Positions 2,411 through 21,506 of a stretch of 64,000 nt of DNA are shown piece by piece. The stretch is from a plasmid. Below the pieces are notes generated by a model. It was not told the origin of the DNA and searched no databases. It saw only the letters and a program-made list of their open reading frames with translations. The stretch is from assembly GCF_054482595.1 (NCBI RefSeq), contig NZ_JBTHVH010000001.1. The stretch is one strand, 5' to 3'. A program made the position numbers and the translations under genes. Positions within the stretch are counted from its first letter, which is position 1, and each line of letters opens with the position of its first letter.

Positions 2411-3108
2411 AGATTGCTTTAGTTTTTCGCTCTGGTGGTGACTATAACGCTTCCGATGTGCAGTGGCTGGTTAATCAACTGCCAAAAGACTATGAAATTA
2501 TTTGCCTGACAGACCTGAAGTGTTTACATGTACCTGGCGTCAAAGTTATCCCATTGATCAACCAGTGGCAAAAGTGCCGTGGCTGGTGGGCGAAAATCGA
2601 GTTGTTCCGACCGGATATAACCGATGATCTGTTCTATCTGGATTTGGACACGGTTATTGCCGGTGATATACGCCCAATCCTAGAGCATCCACCAACCAGC
2701 TTCACCATGCTTAGGGATTTTTACCATCCACAATATCGTGGCAGCGGTGCCCTGTGGATACCAAATAGTGTTAAAGCGCATATCTGGAGTTCATTCTGGC
2801 AAGATCCGGAAGGTTGGATTTCTCGTTGTGTCACTACTGAGTGCTGGGGTGACCAGGGGTTCTTACGAAAGGTTATGGGCGATGATACACCAGCATTTCA
2901 GGATCTGTATCCAGGATGGTTTGTAAGTTACAAGGCCGATGTTGTGGAACCTGGTTCAAAATATGCGAGCGCGCGTTACTCCAGGGGGAATGGGGCATTA
3001 CCAAAAGACTGCCGAATAATCTTTTTCCACGGCAAACCGCGACCTCGCGAAGTGTCAGAGGATTGGCTTCCCCTTATCAGCTCATTTTTTGAGCGAGAAT
3101 CAGAATAA
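2407..3108 (+). CDS. hypothetical protein (233 aa)
   Basis: ORF with ATGA start/stop overlap to the phosphatase gene; DLD motif, fold not assigned. Confidence 0.55.
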
Positions 3109-3109
3109 T

Positions 3110-3126
3110 ATTGCTCTAATAATTCC
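3110..3126 (+). promoter_or_regulatory. C1 repressor operator-like site
   Basis: ATTGCTCTAATAATTCC vs P1 C1 operator consensus ATTGCTCTAATAAATTT. Confidence 0.6.
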
Positions 3127-3137
3127 ATATTTTTAAA

Positions 3138-3166
3138 ACGTGATGTACACTCATCACGTTTTTTAT
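3138..3166 (+). terminator. Rho-independent terminator-like hairpin
   Basis: stem acgtgatg / catcacgt with 7-nt loop followed by T-run. Confidence 0.5.
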
Positions 3167-3175
3167 TAGAGCAAT
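3159..3175 (-). promoter_or_regulatory. C1 operator-like site (inverted)
   Basis: ttttttattagagcaat, reverse complement resembles operator consensus; forms inverted pair with 3110..3126. Confidence 0.45.
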
Positions 3176-3189
3176 CTACAAGGTGCACT

Positions 3190-3408
3190 ATGTGGCCATT
3201 CCGACGGAAATATCACTACTGGCTGATCGCCTTTGTTACGCCGACCGGCGGTATCAGGCATGTCATCACCAGGTATCGCAACAAGAGACTCACCTTAGCC
3301 AGAATTTTACAGGCTGCCATAGGTGAGGGACTGGATACAAATTGCGTAGTCCTTCCTCCTTCATACTTAGGAAAAATGACCGAAGCACAAGCTAATACGG
3401 AACTTTGA
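3190..3408 (+). CDS. hypothetical small protein (72 aa)
   Basis: ORF directly downstream of operator pair; weak SD. Confidence 0.4.
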   Translation: MWPFRRKYHYWLIAFVTPTGGIRHVITRYRNKRLTLARILQAAIGEGLDTNCVVLPPSYLGKMTEAQANTEL

Positions 3409-3409
3409 A

Positions 3410-4672
3410 ATGAGCACTTCAGCACAAAACCAATCAATCGAAAATGTATGTATCCCTGATGTCCTGAATGCCGGTATCCCGGCCATTATCCAGAACATCC
3501 GGGCCGCGCAACGCCGCGTTAGTTGTGATGACCTCACAGCACGTTTTTTTGATAATGCGGTTCAGTCAGCGGAGATGCTTCACGCACAGCTTATTGATGT
3601 TTATAACGCAGAAGCTGATAGCCATAACTCCCTGGTAGATGCAGCTGAAAATATGCAGTTGGATCTCGGTCTGAAGGGTAAAGAAATTGAAGAGCTTCAG
3701 CTGCAAATTGAACATTTGAAACGCCAGCAACAGGACGCGATCGACGATGCGACGCATGACGCCAACCAGCGTGCTGATAATGCCGAACGTATAAGCATTG
3801 AGCTGGAAACAAAACTCAATGAAATGACCGCGATGGTTGAACTGCGGAACTCACAGATTTCAACGCTAAAATCTCAATATAAAGAGATCATGAAACTTGA
3901 TCCTTTTAACCTTGAGAAACGCTATAACAAAGCTAAAAGCGAGCGACAGGAACTGCGTAAGCAGGTCGCCGACCTTAACCAACAGCTCAAAAAAACTATT
4001 AAAGATGCAAGCGAAGCGCGCGTGGCATTTGCTAATAAAAAAGCAGAGGTTACCGCGCTGGTTAATGAGAATGCCAAATTTGCGACGCTCAAGAAGGAAA
4101 TGTATGGCATTACTGAGCGCCGTTTCCCTGCAAGCAAACTTCATCCGACGTTAGGGCAAATCTCCTTCTTCCCGCGCCTCCTGGCTTATGGGATCTCATC
4201 GCCTAAAGAGTTCAATAACGAGCGTCCTTATATCGTTTCTAAACTGGACTTTGCTTATCAGTTCTGCTGCGACATGGGCTATGCCATTGATATCCGAATC
4301 AACGAATGGTTGATGCCAAACTTCCAGCCGCTGGCCATTTTCCGCGAGTTCCAGCCGGAAGGTTGGGTAGAGTTCTTCCATGAATTGATCTGTAAAGAGA
4401 TGGAAAGCCGCCGCCCGGAACTGGTCCGCCGTGTCGAGTGGGCGCAAGAGGTTATGTTGGCAGATGCAGAGCTGCCGTTCGAACCGGAATTTATTGATGA
4501 TCTGGCAGCTAAAGGGCTGCATACCCTGTTTGATGTGGTTACCCGCCGTCATGAGCAGTTGGTTGTCGAATTGGGTTTAGAGGAAACAGCGGCAAGAAGA
4601 CTTCTCGATGTTTGCTATGCACGTAGCGATGCATGGGAAAAAGAGAACGGCGGCACTATTTACGTTCGCTGA
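3410..4672 (+). CDS. coiled-coil protein (420 aa)
   Basis: Long ORF, heptad-rich central region (EELQLQIEHLKRQQQ...), followed by terminator. Confidence 0.6.
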   Translation: MSTSAQNQSIENVCIPDVLNAGIPAIIQNIRAAQRRVSCDDLTARFFDNAVQSAEMLHAQLIDVYNAEADSHNSLVDAAENMQLDLGLKGKEIEELQLQIEHLKRQQQDAIDDATHDANQRADNAERISIELETKLNEMTAMVELRNSQISTLKSQYKEIMKLDPFNLEKRYNKAKSERQELRKQVADLNQQLKKTIKDASEARVAFANKKAEVTALVNENAKFATLKKEMYGITERRFPASKLHPTLGQISFFPRLLAYGISSPKEFNNERPYIVSKLDFAYQFCCDMGYAIDIRINEWLMPNFQPLAIFREFQPEGWVEFFHELICKEMESRRPELVRRVEWAQEVMLADAELPFEPEFIDDLAAKGLHTLFDVVTRRHEQLVVELGLEETAARRLLDVCYARSDAWEKENGGTIYVR

Positions 4673-4693
4673 CAGTTACAGTGTCACTTTTAA

Positions 4694-4728
4694 TGCTGGT
4701 GGAGTGCGCCCACCAGCATTTTTTTCGT
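4694..4728 (+). terminator. Rho-independent terminator
   Basis: gctggtgg agtgcgc ccaccagc hairpin followed by attttttt. Confidence 0.55.
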
Positions 4729-4744
4729 CCAATGAGGAGGGCAT

Positions 4745-5251
4745 TTGAGTATTTTCAATAAACACGCACACCAGGAACGTCCGTATATCGTCATAGTTGA
4801 TATTGATGGAACAATATCAGAGGCAACTGAAGACAGACTGCATTTGCTTCCGCCACCAGGTAAAGGTGCATTAACAAAGGACTGGAACGAGTTTAATCTC
4901 GCCTGTGACACCGATACTCCCATCACTCCAGTTATTGATATGGTGCGCCAGTTATTTAACGTTTACACGGTCTGGTTTGTAACCGGGCGCTGTGAGATCG
5001 CAAGGGATAAAACACGAGCCTGGCTGCGGAAGTACGTAACAAACGGGGCTGAGCCTTTGCTATCTATGCGTCCTGCCACCGATGACAGAAATGACGGCCC
5101 AGCAAAGATTGATCTCCTTAAGAAAATTGGTCTAAGTAAAATCGCGTTCGCGCTGGAAGATAAGATTGAAGTGGCGCGTGTTTTCAGGAGGCACGGCGTG
5201 CTTACGTTAATGGTCAGGGAGTATGAAAATGCGCTTCTTCATCAACAATGA
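4745..5251 (+). CDS. HAD-superfamily phosphatase/nucleotidase-like protein
   Basis: TTG start with AGGAGG SD; VDIDGTI (DxDGT) motif near N-terminus. Confidence 0.6.
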   Translation: MSIFNKHAHQERPYIVIVDIDGTISEATEDRLHLLPPPGKGALTKDWNEFNLACDTDTPITPVIDMVRQLFNVYTVWFVTGRCEIARDKTRAWLRKYVTNGAEPLLSMRPATDDRNDGPAKIDLLKKIGLSKIAFALEDKIEVARVFRRHGVLTLMVREYENALLHQQ

Positions 5252-5267
5252 TTGCTCTAATAAATCT
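5251..5267 (+). promoter_or_regulatory. C1 operator-like site
   Basis: ATTGCTCTAATAAATCT, 16/17 match to consensus. Confidence 0.65.
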
Positions 5268-5349
5268 TGATTTTTAAAACGGAGAAAGTGAAAATAAAAA
5301 CATGCCGCAAGGCGCGGCATGTATCCAATCAATCACAGGAGCTGAAAAT

Positions 5350-5436
5350 ATGAACACGGCATTCAAAATCATTATGGCCGCGATCTATTTCTGGCTGTTC
5401 TCTATCACTTTTGGCGGCATCGTCGCACATGGGTAA
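5350..5436 (+). CDS. candidate small hydrophobic peptide (28 aa)
   Basis: AGGAG SD 7 nt upstream of ATG; MNTAFKIIMAAIYFWLFSITFGGIVAHG; below the ORF-track size cutoff. Confidence 0.3.
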   Translation: MNTAFKIIMAAIYFWLFSITFGGIVAHG

Positions 5437-5445
5437 GGGGGATGC

Positions 5446-6174
5446 ATGAAAGGCGAAGTGAAAGAGCGCGGCATGATTTTCAACGATGAGATGGTCCGGG
5501 CCATCCTCGAAGGAAGGAAAACGCAGACGCGGCGGATAATGAAAAATCAGCCTGCGGAAGTTGGTCCAGAAGCACCAGTGATGGTTAGAAAAATTGGTGC
5601 AGGTTTTCAGTGGTACGGGGCTGATGGTGTAAGCAGTGTTTTCAATTGCCCATTTGGTATCGTCGGCGATCGAATTTGGGTTCGTGAAACATGGGCGATA
5701 TTAGGCAATGAGGATGGTTGCAGTGTGGACTGGAACGACAACCTTTGTCGTGGCGATGAGAAGAACGCAGCAAGGATTTATCGGGCCAGTTGCGAGCAAA
5801 AACCTGGTGATTACGGCTTATGGTCGATACCCGATGATGCCGACTGGAAACCTCACACTGTGAATGAAAAGTTTGATGGTGGGTGGCGTCCATCAATTCA
5901 CATGCCGCGATGGGCATCACGCATTCTGTTGGAAATTACCAACGTGCGCGTTGAACGGTTGAACGATATCAGCGAATGCGATGCAAGGGCTGAGGGCGTT
6001 CCGCCTGCTGGAAGTTTGCTTCCTGATCACCCGGGAACATTCCTTACTCCCAAGGGGGATTTCGCAATGGCCAAGGTTGCGTTCCAGCGCCTGTGGGAAT
6101 CCATCTATGGTGAAGAAAGCTGGAACGCTAATCCCTGGGTGTGGGTAATCGAGTTTAAGCGCATTCAGGAATAA
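5446..6174 (+). CDS. ASCH-like domain protein (242 aa)
   Basis: N-terminal FNDEMVRAILEGRKTQTRR resembles ASCH/PUA-like motif; good SD. Confidence 0.5.
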   Translation: MKGEVKERGMIFNDEMVRAILEGRKTQTRRIMKNQPAEVGPEAPVMVRKIGAGFQWYGADGVSSVFNCPFGIVGDRIWVRETWAILGNEDGCSVDWNDNLCRGDEKNAARIYRASCEQKPGDYGLWSIPDDADWKPHTVNEKFDGGWRPSIHMPRWASRILLEITNVRVERLNDISECDARAEGVPPAGSLLPDHPGTFLTPKGDFAMAKVAFQRLWESIYGEESWNANPWVWVIEFKRIQE

Positions 6175-6177
6175 ACC

Positions 6178-7056
6178 GTGAGTATGCATCAAGTCGTCAG
6201 CTTTTCAGGTGGACGAACATCGGCTTATCTCGTTCATCTGATGGAAGCACAGCGAAAAGCTGGCGCTAGCGTCCATTTCATTTTTATGGATACCGGCTGT
6301 GAACATCCTCTGACGTATCGCTTTATTCGTGAGGTTGTGAAGTTCTGGAACGTACCGCTAACGGTGTTGCAGGTCGATATAAATCCAGAACTTGGGCAGC
6401 CAAATGGTTATACGGAATGGGAACCAAAGGATATTCAGACGCGAATGCCGGTGCTTAAACCGTTTATGGACATGGTTAAAAAGTACGGTACGCCATACAT
6501 CGGCGGCGCGTTCTGTACCGACAGGCTAAAACTCACCCCTTTCACGAAATATTGCGATGACCATTTTGGGCGAGGGAATTACATCACATGGCTCGGTATT
6601 CGTGCGGACGAACCCCGTAGGCTGAAACCGAAACCGGGCGTCCGGTATCTTGCCGAACTGTCAGATTTTGATAAGTCGGATGTTATCCGGTGGTGGCGAA
6701 AACAACCTTTTGATTTGCAAATCCCGGAGCACCTCGGGAACTGTGTTTTTTGCATCAAAAAGTCAACGCAAAAGCTGGGGCTTGCATGTAAAGACGAACC
6801 AGGTCTGATGCGGGTTTTTAATGAACTGGTTACAGGCAAACACGTCAGGGATGGTCATCGCAGAACAGGTAAAGACGTTATGTACCGTGGCCACCTGACG
6901 CTTGACGGGATTGCCAGAATGTATGCCGACAGTGACTACAGAAATTTGTATCAGGCGATGGTGCTGGCCAAGCGGTTTGATACTGGTTCGTGTTCCGAAT
7001 CATGTGAAATCTGGGGTGACCAATTGGAGTTGAAATTCGAAGAGGTAGTGGAATGA
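6178..7056 (+). CDS. PAPS reductase-like PP-loop ATPase family protein
   Basis: SGGxxS PP-loop motif VSFSGGRTSAY; 292 aa. Confidence 0.75.
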   Translation: MSMHQVVSFSGGRTSAYLVHLMEAQRKAGASVHFIFMDTGCEHPLTYRFIREVVKFWNVPLTVLQVDINPELGQPNGYTEWEPKDIQTRMPVLKPFMDMVKKYGTPYIGGAFCTDRLKLTPFTKYCDDHFGRGNYITWLGIRADEPRRLKPKPGVRYLAELSDFDKSDVIRWWRKQPFDLQIPEHLGNCVFCIKKSTQKLGLACKDEPGLMRVFNELVTGKHVRDGHRRTGKDVMYRGHLTLDGIARMYADSDYRNLYQAMVLAKRFDTGSCSESCEIWGDQLELKFEEVVE

Positions 7057-7256
7057 CAATCGTAAAAACCCATACCGGTACCGTGATCACCAAAGATGGC
7101 CCGAAGGTAAAAAAACTGCACCAAACAGAGCGGATGTGGGTCGTTGGCAAAAACGAGTTTTACCACAAAGAAACTGGACGCCGCCACTTTGCAGAAAATA
7201 CGCGCCGTCGACTGCTGTTAGACACCATCAAGCCTATCGAGGTGAAGCATGTTTAA
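7053..7256 (+). CDS. hypothetical small protein (67 aa)
   Basis: ATGA overlap with upstream gene suggests translational coupling. Confidence 0.45.
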   Translation: MTIVKTHTGTVITKDGPKVKKLHQTERMWVVGKNEFYHKETGRRHFAENTRRRLLLDTIKPIEVKHV

Positions 7257-7488
7257 ACAGAACGAAAAGGCTATCGCTCAAATTGCTGATTATATCCCGC
7301 GTGCGTGCCGGGGTATGCAGTTGCAGGAAGCCAAAGCGCGCCTGGAGAAAAAAATTGCGCTCTATATTGATGACGGCTGTGATGCTGCTGTTCTTAACGC
7401 AGCGTTCGCGCCAGCTCTTAACAGTCATACGCGGGAGTCTTTTTTTTCGCGCATCGCAGCGCAGATCCGTAAAGGAGGCAACCAGTGA
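7249..7488 (+). CDS. hypothetical small protein (79 aa)
   Basis: ORF overlapping stop of previous gene. Confidence 0.45.
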   Translation: MFKQNEKAIAQIADYIPRACRGMQLQEAKARLEKKIALYIDDGCDAAVLNAAFAPALNSHTRESFFSRIAAQIRKGGNQ

Positions 7489-8132
7489 GCAAGATTGATT
7501 ATCAAAAGCTTCGTGAAATCGCTGAAAAAACAAAAATTGCTGGTGAAGCACCTGTAATGCCTTTCGATCAGCGAATTAATGCGCTTAACGATTTTATGAA
7601 GCACTTTTCGCCAGATATCGCGCTGGCATTGTTGGATGAACGGGAAAGAAACCAGCAATACATCAAACGCCGCGACCAGGAGAACGAGGAAATTGCGCTA
7701 ACGGTAGGGAAGCTGCGTGTTGAGCTGGAAGGCAAAGACAGCAAAATAGCCAATCTTACCGCCGAACGCGATGCTCTTCGTGAAGGTGAGATGGGCGACG
7801 CTAGGCATAGCAACACACGGGCCGCAGCTGATATCTACTTCCAACTGGTCGAGGAGTGCGAAATTCCTGCTGGCGGATCTCTGGTCGAGTACGTTGACGA
7901 TATGCGCGAGAAGCTGGAAGCCGCAGAGAAGCGCATTGCAGAGTTAGAAAGTGGTTCTCAGGCACAAAAGTTAGTTGAAGCAATCATTGTTGCGATAGAA
8001 AACGAACAGGAAAGGCTTTTTGATGAAGATTACCTAATGGATTCGAAAGAATGCATTGACGTAATTCGTGAAGAAGTAAAGCGATGGAATGATTCCCGTG
8101 CCGCTGGCATTCGCATCAACGGAGGTGAGTAG
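7485..8132 (+). CDS. coiled-coil protein (215 aa)
   Basis: GTG start with AGGAGG SD; heptad-rich. Confidence 0.55.
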   Translation: MSKIDYQKLREIAEKTKIAGEAPVMPFDQRINALNDFMKHFSPDIALALLDERERNQQYIKRRDQENEEIALTVGKLRVELEGKDSKIANLTAERDALREGEMGDARHSNTRAAADIYFQLVEECEIPAGGSLVEYVDDMREKLEAAEKRIAELESGSQAQKLVEAIIVAIENEQERLFDEDYLMDSKECIDVIREEVKRWNDSRAAGIRINGGE

Positions 8133-8304
8133 TGCGTGTGGCATGTATCGGCTTGTTACCGTACCCGACTCGTTTTTGGGCTTCTGCGCTAATTGCAAAG
8201 CCACATGTCCTGATGGCTGACAACATCATCCCGGCACCAAAGCGCCGCCATACCGGTATTGCAGCGGCACGACGAGCAGCAAAGAGACGCAGGAGAGCAA
8301 AGCG

Positions 8305-8493
8305 ATGAAAAACCGTAAAGCAAAGATTCTGTTAGTTCGTAGAAACGCTCCTGGCGTCTGGCAGTGGGTGAGACTCAGCAACCGACGGATGGGGTTAATG
8401 AAACATTACGGGATGATGGATTGTGGTTTTTGCAAAAAGCCCAGCGCGGCGCAAAACCGCTGGAAAAACCACTTGCGCACTAAAGGAGAGTGA
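8305..8493 (+). CDS. hypothetical small basic protein (62 aa)
   Basis: AGGAGA SD upstream of ATG. Confidence 0.35.
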   Translation: MKNRKAKILLVRRNAPGVWQWVRLSNRRMGLMKHYGMMDCGFCKKPSAAQNRWKNHLRTKGE

Positions 8494-8495
8494 TA

Positions 8496-9010
8496 TGGCG
8501 TTAACACACCGCGAACTCTGTCAGATTGCGTACAAGTTCCTTAAGCGCAACGGGTTCAAGGTTTGTTTTCATGACCGCTTTATAGCTGTAACCAGTACCG
8601 GAGAACAGCCAGATGCTATGGGATTCAGAAATTCAGCATCATGCCTGATAGAGGCGAAATGTTCTCGTGCTGACTTGTTGGCAGATAGAAAAAAGCGTTT
8701 TCGTAAAAATCCGTCTCTTGGAATGGGCGACTGGCGATTCTTTATTAGTGAGCCGGGAATTATTTCAATTGAGGATTTACCACCTGGCTGGGGATTACTT
8801 CACGTTGTTAACGGAAGAGTACGGAAAGTACATGGGTGGCCCAAGGGTAATTGCTGTTGGGGTAATCCTGACGATAAGCCATTTACTGGAAATAAGCAGG
8901 TTGAATGCGATTACATGTTATCTGCATTAAGGCGCATGGAGTTAAGAGGGCACCTTAATGAAATATATGACGGTGTAATTGTTAATAAGAAAGAAGGAAA
9001 CGCGGCATGA
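8496..9010 (+). CDS. hypothetical protein (171 aa), possible PD-(D/E)xK-like fold
   Basis: ATG with AAGGAGAG SD (ORF-track ORF 8423..9010 trimmed to this start); motif CLIEAKCSRAD. Confidence 0.5.
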
Positions 9011-9915
9011 TCACTATTACCAAAGAGCGACTACTGACAATCAAGCAGTGGCGCGAAACATACGGACCTGGTAGCAACGTTGTACTGCCAGCAGAAGAAG
9101 CGGAAGAACTGGCACGAATTGCTCTGGCATCGCTGGAGCAGAATGTACTATCGGGCAACTCTCCGCTTATTCCTGGTGAAGTGTTGTCCGCAATCCGGGA
9201 GGTTGCCAGGATTCGTGCCGATTTCGATGATTTTGACGGTGACAGGCGAGGTATCGGTGATTGTCTGGATGAGGCCGAGCAAGAGCTTATCGTTACCATT
9301 AACAAATATGCCAGTCAGTTGGCAGCAGAACCGATAGCGACTAATGACGTTCGAGAGCAAACAGCCGTTCCGCCAATACAGGCTGATGTCGCGCAAGCAA
9401 TTGAAAATCTCAAGCAGAAGTTAGTGGAATGCAATCGCTATAACTACTGCGCAGATGCAGTGAAGAACGTAGAGGATGCCTGCCGTGCTGTTAGCTATAG
9501 CCAAGCCGACAATCAGCCAGCATCTGGCAACCAGGCTGCCGAATCCAATCGCGGTAATGAGTGGACTGGCAATCCTGATATTGATAACGCCATCATCATG
9601 CTCGACCGCATAGATACGCTGGAAAATTGCGATGATGACCGTATTGAGGCTGTTAAGGCTGTTTTGCGTAGACTGGCTGGCAACTCTCCGGTAACTCCGG
9701 ATGGTTGGATAAGCTGTAGTGAGCGAATGCCGGATACCAAAACAGCCGTTCTTGTTGCCAGGGAGTTTGACAGGAAAGGTGACTGGCGAATGAAATGGGC
9801 GACTTACATCCCGGGGCATCCTGACGCTAATGATGGGTGGGTAATACCTGGTGCGTCGTGGATTCCATCACACTGGATGCCGCTACCAGAACCGCCGCAG
9901 GAGGTGAATCAATGA
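9007..9915 (+). CDS. hypothetical protein with DUF551-like C-terminus
   Basis: 302 aa; C-terminal DGWISCSERMPD...HWMPLPEPP resembles DUF551. Confidence 0.55.
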   Translation: MITITKERLLTIKQWRETYGPGSNVVLPAEEAEELARIALASLEQNVLSGNSPLIPGEVLSAIREVARIRADFDDFDGDRRGIGDCLDEAEQELIVTINKYASQLAAEPIATNDVREQTAVPPIQADVAQAIENLKQKLVECNRYNYCADAVKNVEDACRAVSYSQADNQPASGNQAAESNRGNEWTGNPDIDNAIIMLDRIDTLENCDDDRIEAVKAVLRRLAGNSPVTPDGWISCSERMPDTKTAVLVAREFDRKGDWRMKWATYIPGHPDANDGWVIPGASWIPSHWMPLPEPPQEVNQ

Positions 9916-9979
9916 GCTGGCCTGAAGCATTCACCACGGTAGGAATTGTGATGGCGGCAGCACTGGGTTTGTATTCAAT

Positions 9980-10231
9980 TTGTCGCTGGTGGTAACGATG
10001 GGAAAAATAACTTTTGTAGTCGAATTTGAGGATGGCAAAGAGCCACCTGTTAGCGCCAATCTTGATGTTGCTGGTGGCAGGCTTGTTTCGGTTCTATTTG
10101 GTGACTACCGAGATGACTTCTTCCAACCAGAAGAAGTTGATGTAGTGCGAGAGGCATTAAACGAGTTAAGTGTTGATAACGATGATGCTCATGCGGAAAT
10201 CATCCAAAAAATGGAACTGCTAACTCACTAA
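9980..10231 (+). CDS. hypothetical small acidic protein
   Basis: ORF only; start uncertain. Confidence 0.35.
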   Translation: MSLVVTMGKITFVVEFEDGKEPPVSANLDVAGGRLVSVLFGDYRDDFFQPEEVDVVREALNELSVDNDDAHAEIIQKMELLTH

Positions 10232-10279
10232 ATTATCAATTATGGTGCTATCACCTACGACACCGAGAGAAAATTTATA

Positions 10280-10402
10280 ATGTCAAAAGTAAATGTTTTG
10301 ATTTTTTCAGCAATTGTTGGCTTTGGTTTTACTGCCGGAGTGCAGATTTATATTACGTGGGAAAAAATCATCAACTACGCATGGAGTTGTTTTATTAAGT
10401 GA
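10280..10402 (+). CDS. candidate small membrane peptide (40 aa)
   Basis: MSKVNVLIFSAIVGFGFTAGVQIYITWEKIINYAWSCFIK; hydrophobic; below ORF-track cutoff. Confidence 0.25.
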   Translation: MSKVNVLIFSAIVGFGFTAGVQIYITWEKIINYAWSCFIK

Positions 10403-10409
10403 GGTAAGT

Positions 10410-10703
10410 ATGTGGAGAGGTAATAGTCATGGCAAAAGCCAGATGATACTTACCGAATATCAGTTTGACCATAAAACCAATAAATCACGTTCAGTATATT
10501 TGCTTCGGCACAATAGCCGCGTAAGGAATACCGTGCTGGAGCAAAATCTGACTGTTGAAATAGATAGTTACGGGGGCTTCAAGCCAACAATTTCGCTTGA
10601 TGATTTTCCTCGTGGTTTAAGCGAAAGAGAAGCAATGCTGAAATTAGCAGAATGGCTACAAAGATTAAGCATTGCTATTGAAGATAACTGGTCTGAACCT
10701 TAA
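10410..10703 (+). CDS. hypothetical protein
   Basis: ATG with GAGGTAAG SD inside ORF-track ORF 10314..10703. Confidence 0.4.
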   Translation: MWRGNSHGKSQMILTEYQFDHKTNKSRSVYLLRHNSRVRNTVLEQNLTVEIDSYGGFKPTISLDDFPRGLSEREAMLKLAEWLQRLSIAIEDNWSEP

Positions 10704-10709
10704 ATTTAT

Positions 10710-11084
10710 ATGATGACACTAAAACATTTTCTTGACCGCCCATTATGGGCGGCAGCCGCAGGCTATGACTTTAATTATATGGATTGCATGTCTTATACCG
10801 CCAATGCATACGACTATTCCTTCAGTCTGCTGCTTAATTCTTTAAGAATATTGCCGCAAACAGAAGTTGGAGAGCTTCATTTATGGCTATTGGGCTTTAT
10901 CGCGGCTGTCGTTGGTATTGCTGTATGGCCTTTTATTTTCTGGCTGGTGGCTGTTGTAGTGTGGTTTAAGTGCAAGACATACCGGAAAAAGTATTTCTTA
11001 GGTGATGGAATGACTGATATTGCCAAAATGAACATTGAAGAATGGACTAAGGAATGTGAAAAGAAATGGCGCAAAAAGAAATGA
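10710..11084 (+). CDS. putative membrane protein (124 aa)
   Basis: hydrophobic segment LWLLGFIAAVVGIAVWPFIFWLVAVVVWF. Confidence 0.5.
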   Translation: MMTLKHFLDRPLWAAAAGYDFNYMDCMSYTANAYDYSFSLLLNSLRILPQTEVGELHLWLLGFIAAVVGIAVWPFIFWLVAVVVWFKCKTYRKKYFLGDGMTDIAKMNIEEWTKECEKKWRKKK

Positions 11085-11923
11085 CCAGAATAACTGAAGA
11101 GCGCATATCAGAGATTATTTCCCGTATCGAAATGTATGGTCACGGTGCTGGATATACGGCAGATGAAGGATTGGAAATAGCCCAGCAGATGCTGGCCTTG
11201 AGACAAAAAGAGCAACATGAAAGTAATACGTGTAGATTGAATTTTGAGCATTGGCTGGAACAGCAACGCGGAAAAATCGATGTGGACTGTGGTTGTGTGT
11301 CCACTGAAACATTCATGCACTGGCTGTGGGTAGCTTACGAGGCTGGCAACTATCCGGATATTCCGGATAGTTCGGTGCCAGCGCCAGGAAAGGGCGTCAC
11401 CGGTGAACGTATCCGCATTAAGCCGCATGTTTATCGCGAACTGGTTAACCGTCTCCACGATACAGCGATCAAGTGTGCTGGCACCCAGCAATTACGAGAA
11501 AGAATTAGCCGTGTTTTGGGCGACGTTATTACACCAGATCATCATAAACAAGCCGAGAAAAGTGACCTGGAAAGGTGTCACCTTGAGGCGGCATTAAACA
11601 TTAAGCCGGGGCATACGCTTGGCATTATTGATGCACTATTGGTTCATAAGATGGCCAGGGCTTTATTGCCGCTGGTGGCTGAAAAAGAGAACGCGAGCCT
11701 CAAAAAAATGCTGTCGCGGGCGGAAAGGGAATTATCAGGCAAATTATTGCCAGAAGAACTGCCACCAGCAGATATACCAGATCGAGTGTCCCAGTGGATG
11801 AAGTCTTTTGGTTTGCCGTGGGAGGCTTTTTGGTGCTACGACCATCGCAGATGGTGTGATGAACTTGATAGCAATTTTCCCTACTTTGCGGAAGGGAACA
11901 CCTGCCCTCAATGCAGGGGATAG
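11066..11923 (+). CDS. hypothetical protein (285 aa)
   Basis: ORF; C-terminal CPQCRG Cys motif. Confidence 0.55.
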   Translation: MAQKEMTRITEERISEIISRIEMYGHGAGYTADEGLEIAQQMLALRQKEQHESNTCRLNFEHWLEQQRGKIDVDCGCVSTETFMHWLWVAYEAGNYPDIPDSSVPAPGKGVTGERIRIKPHVYRELVNRLHDTAIKCAGTQQLRERISRVLGDVITPDHHKQAEKSDLERCHLEAALNIKPGHTLGIIDALLVHKMARALLPLVAEKENASLKKMLSRAERELSGKLLPEELPPADIPDRVSQWMKSFGLPWEAFWCYDHRRWCDELDSNFPYFAEGNTCPQCRG

Positions 11924-12258
11924 CATTTGACGAAATCGATCACCCTATCCTGAACTTCAGAAAGAAGGTCTTTTTCACGCGCCAGGACGTCAGGATATTG
12001 ACGTTCTGGCCTTACCAGATGCCGGAGCTTCCCATTAAGCAGAATGGCCTCAGAAAACACTTTTACGCTGTGCTTTATCCCCTCTGTTTCACTTTTCAGC
12101 GTCAAAATAAAGCGCAATTGCTTATTAGCCTGATTCGGATTCAATACACGAATTTGCAGTTCGTCTATGCTGTTTCGCAATGGGATTGATGCCACCACAC
12201 TGGTGCAGTCTCTGATTGTCTGAATTGAACGGCTAACATTGAGAACGTTATTGTGCAT
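11908..12258 (-). CDS. hypothetical ORF (116 aa), uncertain
   Basis: Only minus-strand ORF in an otherwise plus-strand block; weak SD. Confidence 0.25.
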   Translation of the reverse strand: MHNNVLNVSRSIQTIRDCTSVVASIPLRNSIDELQIRVLNPNQANKQLRFILTLKSETEGIKHSVKVFSEAILLNGKLRHLVRPERQYPDVLAREKDLLSEVQDRVIDFVKCYPLH

Positions 12259-12290
12259 GTGCCTGATCCACTAACTCCTGGAGGTTTCTT

Positions 12291-12542
12291 GTGTCAGATC
12301 GAAATATAGCAGCTAAAAGCCAGGAAGAGCGAGACAAGGTGAACGTAGACCTTGCCGCCAGCGGCGTTGCTTACAAAGAACGGCTGAATATACCTGTGAT
12401 TGCAGAGCAGGTGGCCCGTGAGCAACCGGAAAACCTGCGCGCCTATTTCATGGAACGGCTACGGCACTACCGGCAGTTAAGCCTCCAGTTGCCAAAAGGG
12501 AGCGATCCGGTGTATCAGAACGAGGATGCACCAAAAAAATAA
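12291..12542 (+). CDS. hot: DNA polymerase III theta-subunit homolog
   Basis: [36 protein letters not shown] aligns with E. coli HolE; GTG start with GGAGG SD. Confidence 0.85.
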
Positions 12543-12629
12543 CGGCAAGATGGGGGAGAAATGTGATTAGCCCCCAGCGTGGCGCGCCTACAAACCCCGC
12601 TTTCACAAACTATGCCTTTTCAATGTATA

Positions 12630-12645
12630 CTGTATGAATAAACAG
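12630..12645 (+). promoter_or_regulatory. LexA (SOS) box upstream of humD
   Basis: CTGTATGAATAAACAG matches CTGT-N8-ACAG. Confidence 0.6.
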
Positions 12646-12665
12646 TATCATTGAGGTAAAACGCT

Positions 12666-13055
12666 ATGGGCTTCCCTTCTCCTGCGGCGGATTATGTTGA
12701 AAGCCGAATTTCTCTTGATCAGCAGATAATTAGACATCCTTCAGCGACCTACTTCATGCGGGCAGCTGATAGCCATCACCGTGAGGGAATATTGCAGGGT
12801 GCTTTGCTGGTGGTTGATTCCTCGCTTACTCCGGTTGATGGTTCTCTGCTTGTGTGCGCTATGGAGGGTGAATATCGCATAAAGAGATACAGGAAGTATC
12901 CGCGCCAGCACCTGGAGGACTTAAGCACCGGGAAGAAAGAGGCGTTACCAGTAGATGACGATGGATACACGGGCAGTAATGCTGTTTTTGGTGTGATCAC
13001 TCATGTCATCAATGATGCCCGAAGTGGGGAATTTGATGATTGTCCGGTTATTTAA
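12666..13055 (+). CDS. humD: UmuD'-like S24 peptidase-family SOS mutagenesis protein
   Basis: GFPSPAADYVE...HPSATYF... aligns with UmuD; 129 aa as P1 HumD. Confidence 0.85.
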   Translation: MGFPSPAADYVESRISLDQQIIRHPSATYFMRAADSHHREGILQGALLVVDSSLTPVDGSLLVCAMEGEYRIKRYRKYPRQHLEDLSTGKKEALPVDDDGYTGSNAVFGVITHVINDARSGEFDDCPVI

Positions 13056-19996: not shown

Positions 19997-20848
19997 TTAT
20001 TGCGCGCTTTCGGGGTTGTCGTTTACTGGCTGCCCCTTCTTGGTTTTACGGCTGCGCGTAACTGATGCGGCTGACTTAACCTTTTTCTCTTCGCGAGTGA
20101 TGGCAATTTGTTTTTTTACATTTTCAATATCTGCCAGGCGATATATTTTTGCTTGCGGCCAGCGGTCGCAGATGATCGGTTCTATGGAGTCATAAAGGCT
20201 AAATTTTGCTTTTTCGAATTCACCGTTGATGATAATTCCATCACGGAGAGTTTCATCGCAGATAAACACGCCACACAGTGGCACATGGTAACTAACTGAT
20301 TTACCATCATTGTAGTTAGGGCTACTGGAAATGTAGTGGACGCGCAGCATTGTTTCGCTAAAGCCGTGTACGCGCATACGGAATTTTTCATCCTCCGGGT
20401 ACTGCCTCATTAGCTCTTTTGTTGCTTCCAGGTTCTCTATGTATTTCGCACTGTGCTCATTGATCCCCGCGCTTTTTTGGATGCGAATGTCCTTATCAAT
20501 CAGATGAATAATGCGGCCAGCGGTCATGTTGACGCTGTTCACAGCTTCTGTCTGATAAGTTGTAACCTTGCGCACACCGCGAAGGATGTTAGGCACTGGA
20601 TATAAAATAGTCTTTGGGATATTGAGGTCTGGGTACTGTTCCAGTTCCCGCGCCATTAAAGTCCATTTATCAATTTCAGCCTGAATGCTGTCTGTTTCTT
20701 TGAACGGTAGAACGACAACCGGGCGTACAGGACGACCGTCGCTGGCGGCATCAACGTGTTGGGCGCGTGCAACAGCTTTTTTTAGAAAGAGATCCCTGAA
20801 GCTGACGAACTCCTGGTACAGTTGTTCGCCGTAGACATAATTTATCAT
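19997..20848 (-). CDS. c1: C1 master repressor
   Basis: 283 aa MINYVYGEQLYQEFVSFRDLF... matches recalled P1 C1. Confidence 0.9.
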   Translation of the reverse strand: MINYVYGEQLYQEFVSFRDLFLKKAVARAQHVDAASDGRPVRPVVVLPFKETDSIQAEIDKWTLMARELEQYPDLNIPKTILYPVPNILRGVRKVTTYQTEAVNSVNMTAGRIIHLIDKDIRIQKSAGINEHSAKYIENLEATKELMRQYPEDEKFRMRVHGFSETMLRVHYISSSPNYNDGKSVSYHVPLCGVFICDETLRDGIIINGEFEKAKFSLYDSIEPIICDRWPQAKIYRLADIENVKKQIAITREEKKVKSAASVTRSRKTKKGQPVNDNPESAQ

Positions 20849-21406: not shown

Positions 21407-21423
21407 TAATTTATTAGAGCAAT
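21407..21423 (-). promoter_or_regulatory. C1 operator (immC cluster)
   Basis: taatttattagagcaat, near-perfect reverse-complement of consensus. Confidence 0.6.
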
Positions 21424-21489: not shown

Positions 21490-21506
21490 ATTGCTCTAAT
21501 AATTCT
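21490..21506 (+). promoter_or_regulatory. C1 operator (immC cluster)
   Basis: ATTGCTCTAATAATTCT. Confidence 0.65.

Follow-up and report, generated by a model that had tools for sequence, protein, structure and literature searches.

The window analysed here, a 64-kb stretch of DNA, comes from a phage-plasmid of the P1/P7/SJ46 type, and the wider region around the feature shares 98-99.7% identity with phages SJ46, P7 and P1. Between positions 2400 and 4700 the window is slightly closer to SJ46 (99.7% identity) and P7 (99.3%) than to P1 (99.1%). The feature itself, at 3110-3175, occupies most of the 81-bp gap between two plus-strand genes assigned from the list of open reading frames and the phage annotations. 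Upstream lies pmgQ (hdmD in P7; 2407-3108, stop codon TAA at 3106-3108), which gave no Pfam match and is the last gene of the pmgN-pmgO-pmgP-ppp-pmgQ unit; in the P1 annotation this unit has a C1 operator of its own, Oppp/Op83. An earlier note on this DNA spoke of an upstream phosphatase operon. The metallophosphoesterase gene ppp (1718-2410) is indeed part of the unit, but it lies one gene further up, and the gene that directly adjoins the feature is pmgQ. Downstream are pmgR (shtA; 3190-3408, +), preceded by a Shine-Dalgarno-like AAGGTG at 3180-3185, and pmgS (shtB; 3410-4672, +), the second gene of the pmgR-pmgS unit. This unit is closed by a strong canonical plus-strand terminator at 4692-4725, detected by both the terminator scan and our custom scan and folding at -17.6 kcal/mol. 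The pmgR gene is essential for the production of infectious P1 particles, and its deletion leaves unjoined heads and tails, a head-completion/head-tail joining phenotype (PMC9024508).

The 66-bp feature is bounded by two inverted matches to the C1 operator consensus ATTGCTCTAATAAATTT, whose 17-bp length and asymmetry are described in PMC8546580. The first, ATTGCTCTAATAATTCC, is on the plus strand at 3110-3126; the second, at 3159-3175, is on the minus strand, with ATTGCTCTAATAAAAAA as its reverse complement. Both sites match the consensus at 14 of 17 positions. The mismatches are confined to positions 14-17, and in the second site all three fall at positions 15-17, where TTT is replaced by AAA. 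The 13-nt cores (3110-3122 and 3163-3175) are thus perfect and form a perfect inverted repeat, with 32 bp between the two 17-mers. Since the sites are this far apart and form no compact palindrome, they do not constitute a bivalent (overlapping) operator. Allowing up to three mismatches, the 64-kb window contains 11 matches to the consensus, compared with 0.30 expected from shuffled sequences, and none of 100 shuffles reached 11.

The inverted pair of operator-like sites postulated in the earlier note is therefore present, and the repressor gene is encoded in the same window: c1 (20000-20848, minus strand), which would supply the trans-acting factor, encodes a product with 99.3% identity over 283 amino acids to P1 C1 by tblastn. 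PMC8546580 and PMC8198154 provide background on C1 and Coi, and on Lxc, the corepressor. Upstream of coi/c1 we observed two divergent strong C1 operator matches 83 bp apart, at 21407-21423 (minus strand) and 21490-21506 (plus strand), which by position correspond to Oc1d/Op99d and Oc1e/Op99e. At 21407, a near-consensus promoter (TTGACA-operator-TAGTTT) has the operator as its 17-bp spacer. The offset between window and P1 coordinates shifts by ~4.1 kb along the sequence (3110 corresponds to P1 82152 and 13000 to P1 87918), so the window has extra DNA relative to P1 somewhere within ~5300-13000.

Comparison with the P1 operator catalogue, as the earlier note had proposed, revealed that the two sites are byte-identical to annotated P1 operators and hold the same positions. 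The first corresponds to P1 82152-82168, described in GenBank as 'monovalent C1-controlled operator OpmgRa', formerly Op86a, controlling expression of pmgR and pmgS; its protein_bind entry names 'phage repressor C1'. The second corresponds to the protein_bind entry at P1 82201-82217 on the opposite strand, OpmgRb, formerly Op86b. (We use the former names, Op86a and Op86b, below.) In the P7 record, identical bases are labelled Op(sht[a]) and Op(sht[b]). A 121-bp segment spanning the feature is 100% identical to P1 (AF234172) and P7 (AF503408), and the stretch is contained in 19 phage records and 687 PLSDB plasmids. By sequence identity, then, the stretch at 3110-3175 is the already catalogued P1 operator pair, and its detection here is a rediscovery rather than a new find. 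The P1 GenBank note on OpmgRa and OpmgRb cites no binding data. What the present analysis adds to the annotation is comparative support for a terminator, doubt about the deposited -10 element and the overlap between U-tract and operator, all of which are minor.

Between the operators lies a terminator-like hairpin. Folding delineates a perfect inverted repeat at 3135-3162 on the plus strand, with the 5' arm AAAACGTGATG at 3135-3145, the loop TACACT at 3146-3151 and the 3' arm CATCACGTTTT at 3152-3162. It is followed by a T-run, TTTTTTATT (T6-A-TT), at 3159-3167, which would serve as the U-tract and overlaps positions 9-17 of Op86b. The earlier note had placed a stem-loop plus T-run at 3138..3166, coordinates that prove approximately right. 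The 11-bp stem includes a 7-bp core with C and G residues (3139-3145/3152-3158) and four G-C pairs. RNA folding of the hairpin gave -13.4 kcal/mol with a z-score of -5.0; the 7-bp core alone yields -8.5 kcal/mol, and the stem extended to 11 bp -12.9 kcal/mol. With a core of such modest stability, only some of the transcripts may terminate. The stem begins 27 nt past the pmgQ stop codon, 3' of the gene end on its coding strand, and an A-tract is located upstream of it. Neither the P1 record nor the P7 deposit annotates the hairpin as a terminator.

A generic promoter/terminator scan of the window did not call the hairpin, because the stem is extended into the T-run by pairing of the flanking A and T runs, leaving too few T residues. 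We also ran a strict custom scan of both strands of the 64 kb, requiring a perfect 7-bp stem with at least three G-C pairs and at least six T residues in the next eight bases. It returned six loci, among them the hairpin at 3135-3162, compared with 0.17 in shuffled sequences. These counts confirm that the operator matches and the terminator-like hairpin are not a chance pattern. An Rfam search of 2800-5600 at E <= 1 gave two sub-threshold chance matches, both elsewhere, and no family at the hairpin.

To follow the module across relatives, we gathered 80 P1-group viral contigs through homology to the PmgS protein, that is, independently of the operators. Both exact 13-mer cores were present in 79 of the 80 loci. 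The sole core substitution (Op86b TTATCAGAGCAAT) occurs upstream of pmgR in one contig (IMGVR_UViG_2744054872_000006, L045), in which the Op86a 3' end and the stem (CATCATG) are changed as well and which is perhaps a decaying copy or a contig of low quality. When the unique P1-group sequences were aligned, no substitution was seen in the operator cores, compared with variation at 6 of the 14 bp that separate Op86b from the pmgR start codon ATG and at 5 of 11 positions in each stem arm. The T-run, alignment columns 50-55 (window 3159-3164), is invariant in all 31 variants examined. Diverged relatives were found in three lineages: Cronobacter phage JK004 (PmgS 69.5% identical) together with a metagenome contig of the same stem type (L247), a group of Salmonella plasmids, and a viral contig (L141). 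All of them keep the 66-bp length, both operator cores and the T-run. When contigs were scanned for the operator-pair pattern itself, genome contigs yielded only two examples, both from Escherichia; metagenomes yielded 50 contigs, nearly all with the P1-type hairpin, the JK004-type contig being among them.

These comparisons bear on whether C1 occupies the two sites at all. Each has three mismatches to the consensus, and one could suppose that they are chance or relic matches that C1 does not bind in vivo. We regard this as highly improbable. The mismatches are limited to the variable 3' part of the site (positions 14-17), only 0.30 such sites are expected by chance per 64 kb, and the perfect 13-nt cores are invariant across the P1, P7, JK004 and Salmonella lineages although nearby non-coding bases vary.

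The stem behaves differently from the operator cores: its sequence changes between lineages and its pairing is kept. The diverged stems read CATGGTG/CACCATG or CGCCATG, compared with CGTGATG/CATCACG in the P1 type. Among the P1, Salmonella-plasmid and JK004 types, two stem pairs differ by substitutions in both arms, one G-C having become A-U and one A-U having become G-C, although these compensatory changes represent only one or two evolutionary events common to related lineages. A G.U intermediate occurs in the Escherichia albertii plasmid pEA36_1 (NZ_CP117591.1, L087), where the module is intact; in this plasmid an IS911-family transposase gene (169-1337 in the locus) lies ~0.5 kb upstream of the module, at the position of hdmC/ppp in P7. 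Across lineages, pairing is kept in 97.7% of inner-helix cells, and the folds are equivalent (-12.8 to -14.5 kcal/mol). The alignments thus show that the hairpin is maintained by compensatory change and that the operator cores are strongly constrained.

It could be argued that the hairpin is no terminator but a DNA palindrome (a protein site or cruciform) or a structure in the 5'-UTR of the pmgR mRNA, the T-run being simply the opposite-strand reading of the A-rich 3' end of Op86b. The T-run does coincide with operator positions 12-17, the core stem reaches just -8.5 kcal/mol, the generic terminator scan was silent, and several rare P1-group variants break a stem pair. Change of stem sequence with retention of pairing nevertheless argues against a sequence-specific protein site. 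One-sided stem variants are of the G.U type on the plus strand at 10 distinct site changes, compared with 4 of the A.C type, and those present in many contigs are exclusively of the G.U type. Such variants fit only plus-strand RNA, and this preference suggests that the structure is formed by the RNA of rightward transcripts and is not a protein site or a palindrome acting as DNA. Moreover, Op86b leaves the consensus precisely where a U-tract results, the change of TTT to AAA at positions 15-17 being exactly what yields the plus-strand U6 tract; the hairpin stands 27 nt past the pmgQ stop on the coding strand; and it matches no Rfam family. A non-terminator role therefore seems quite unlikely to us, and the hairpin has the appearance of a true intrinsic terminator, serving the pmgN-pmgO-pmgP-ppp-pmgQ operon on the plus strand. 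We also considered a second RNA structure, an outer 13-bp stem that the two operator cores would form in read-through RNA (-26.9 kcal/mol). This was set aside as a selected structure because 12 of the 13 pairs are constant and a change at position 1 of Op86b, in the terminal pair, brings no compensating change; operator identity alone explains the pairing.

A possible promoter for the downstream operon had been suggested in the earlier note, in agreement with the P1 record, which places a 'predicted sigma 70 promoter PpmgR' here for pmgR-pmgS. Mapped onto the window, the deposited promoter (3111-3139, +) consists of the -35 element TTGCTC at 3111-3116, a 17-bp spacer and the -10 element TAAAAC at 3134-3139. 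It matches the consensus at 7 of 12 positions and lacks T at position 6 of the -10. We noted an alternative candidate at 3124-3151 (+), in which the -35 element TCCATA (3124-3129) overlaps the 3' end of Op86a and, after a 16-bp spacer, the -10 element TACACT (3146-3151) is the hairpin loop. This candidate also scores 7 of 12 in the window, and the generic promoter scan of the window called neither of the two. The lineages differ in how they treat them. The deposited -10 is not conserved: some P1-group contigs have TGAAAC in its place, and JK004 has TGAAGC. The loop hexamer, TACACT in P1, reads TATCAT in the diverged lineages, with T1, A2 and T6 kept in all variants, and the JK004 homologue of the loop candidate, TTTACT-16-TATCAT, scores 9 of 12 and is called by the promoter scan.

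A similar pattern is seen at another P1 operator, OpmgT (Op88; ATTGCTCTAATAAATCT, window 5251-5267), which is associated with the promoters P1pmgT and P2pmgT. As with Op86a, a single operator sits immediately behind the preceding gene, the first base of Op88 being also the final base of the pap stop codon, and nearly the same ATTTTTAAAAC stretch comes after it. The TAAAAC after Op88, analogous to the deposited -10 at Op86a, is TAAGGT in JK004 and so likewise lost. JK004 does retain the second Op88 promoter, in which the -35 starts where the operator ends on its 3' side, much as in the loop -10 candidate. We think a promoter with its -10 in the loop more likely than the deposited TTGCTC-17-TAAAAC, since the -10 predicted in the deposited records is not the element conserved in diverged relatives. 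We would put the loop candidate at a little short of an even chance of being the pmgR promoter. It is rather unlikely that neither candidate is the promoter, and somewhat more unlikely still that PpmgR as deposited is.

Two other kinds of promoter were considered and rejected. No resemblance to the -22 box of a P1 late promoter was found in comparison with LPpmgL and LPhot. Nor is there a leftward promoter in the P1 type, in which a minus-strand promoter-like match of the JK004/Salmonella type is not conserved. That match, ATGATA-18-TAAAAT, was called by the scan in loci of the JK004 and Salmonella-plasmid types (L003 2212-2241 and L084 1896-1925). The hairpin loop provides the -35 of this match and the Op86a homologue, with its 3' end, the -10; a transcript from it would run antisense into pmgQ.

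Taking the evidence together, the locus is very probably best explained as the Op86a/Op86b pair placed around an intrinsic terminator with an embedded weak promoter for pmgR-pmgS. C1, a monomeric repressor, would bind Op86a and Op86b as separate monovalent 17-bp sites that face opposite ways. The plus-strand terminator (7-11 bp stem, 6-nt loop, U6AUU) is predicted to end transcripts of the pmgN-pmgO-pmgP-ppp-pmgQ unit 55-60 nt beyond the pmgQ stop, and a weak sigma-70 promoter within the module would restart transcription for pmgR-pmgS. From either promoter candidate, the start would lie inside or after the hairpin, so that the transcripts would lack the 5' arm and thereby escape termination. 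In the lysogen, C1 (with Lxc) at both operators would silence the pmgR-pmgS promoter.

The earlier note suggested that C1 binding could control read-through from the upstream operon, a proposal that finds no support here. On such a reading the repressor would act mainly on read-through rather than by repressing a local promoter, either as a roadblock, when bound at Op86b over the U-tract or at Op86a, or by altering terminator efficiency. Op86b does overlap the U-tract as well as the 3' base of the stem, the local promoter candidates are both weak, and pmgR, as an essential morphogenetic gene, could depend partly on read-through. We nonetheless judge this improbable as the main role of the pair. 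The upstream unit would already be off under C1, given its own operator Oppp/Op83, which makes control of read-through unnecessary; in the deposited annotation the sites serve to control pmgR/pmgS expression; and nothing in the sequence requires it, roadblock and promoter occlusion being compatible. Read-through control as a secondary roadblock effect is, in our estimate, similarly improbable.

Within the preferred explanation, local repression of a pmgR-pmgS promoter around the pmgQ terminator, a more compact arrangement can be considered tentatively, although we think it more doubtful than otherwise. Three functions would overlap in the 66 bp: the -10 of pmgR would be the loop of the pmgQ terminator, and the U-tract would be the 3' part of Op86b, whose mismatches would lie there to make the U-tract. 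With the loop promoter, the positions relative to the start would be about -48 to -32 for Op86a and about +2 to +18 for Op86b. If the three-function reading were true, the GenBank promoter would be misplaced and C1 would bracket the true core promoter at these positions.

With respect to known systems, P1 OpmgRa/OpmgRb with PpmgR and P7 Op(sht[a])/Op(sht[b]) share the sequence, position, orientation and flanking genes of the present module, with no sequence difference. Bivalent P1 operators such as Oc1ab (Op99a/b) likewise present two opposite C1 sites on one promoter region, but there the 17-mers overlap within 28 bp, whereas Op86a and Op86b lie 32 bp apart with the hairpin between them and are entered in GenBank as two monovalent operators. 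Bacterial intrinsic terminators with an embedded or adjacent restart promoter share with the module a stem-loop and U-tract right after a stop codon, an upstream A-tract and a new transcription unit starting within a few tens of bases. Unlike the typical case, the stem at 3135-3162 is AU-rich and of modest stability, and its U-tract doubles as part of a repressor site. Outside P1 biology the locus is of little importance, although it confirms that catalogued C1 operators can be recognised from sequence alone. The picture of how the pmgQ and pmgR units may be insulated from each other, by two C1 sites packed together with a terminator and a restart promoter into 66 bp, also becomes a little clearer. 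Since pmgR is essential (PMC9024508), those who engineer P1 phagemids or P1-like resistance plasmids should keep the module intact.

Op88 differs from the pair described here in that it is monovalent, has no inverted partner and is not separated from its gene by a plus-strand terminator. A strong hairpin does occur at 5300-5322, about 30 nt beyond the Op88 region, with its T-run on the minus strand; it resembles a terminator of leftward transcription within the leader of the rightward pmgT operon.
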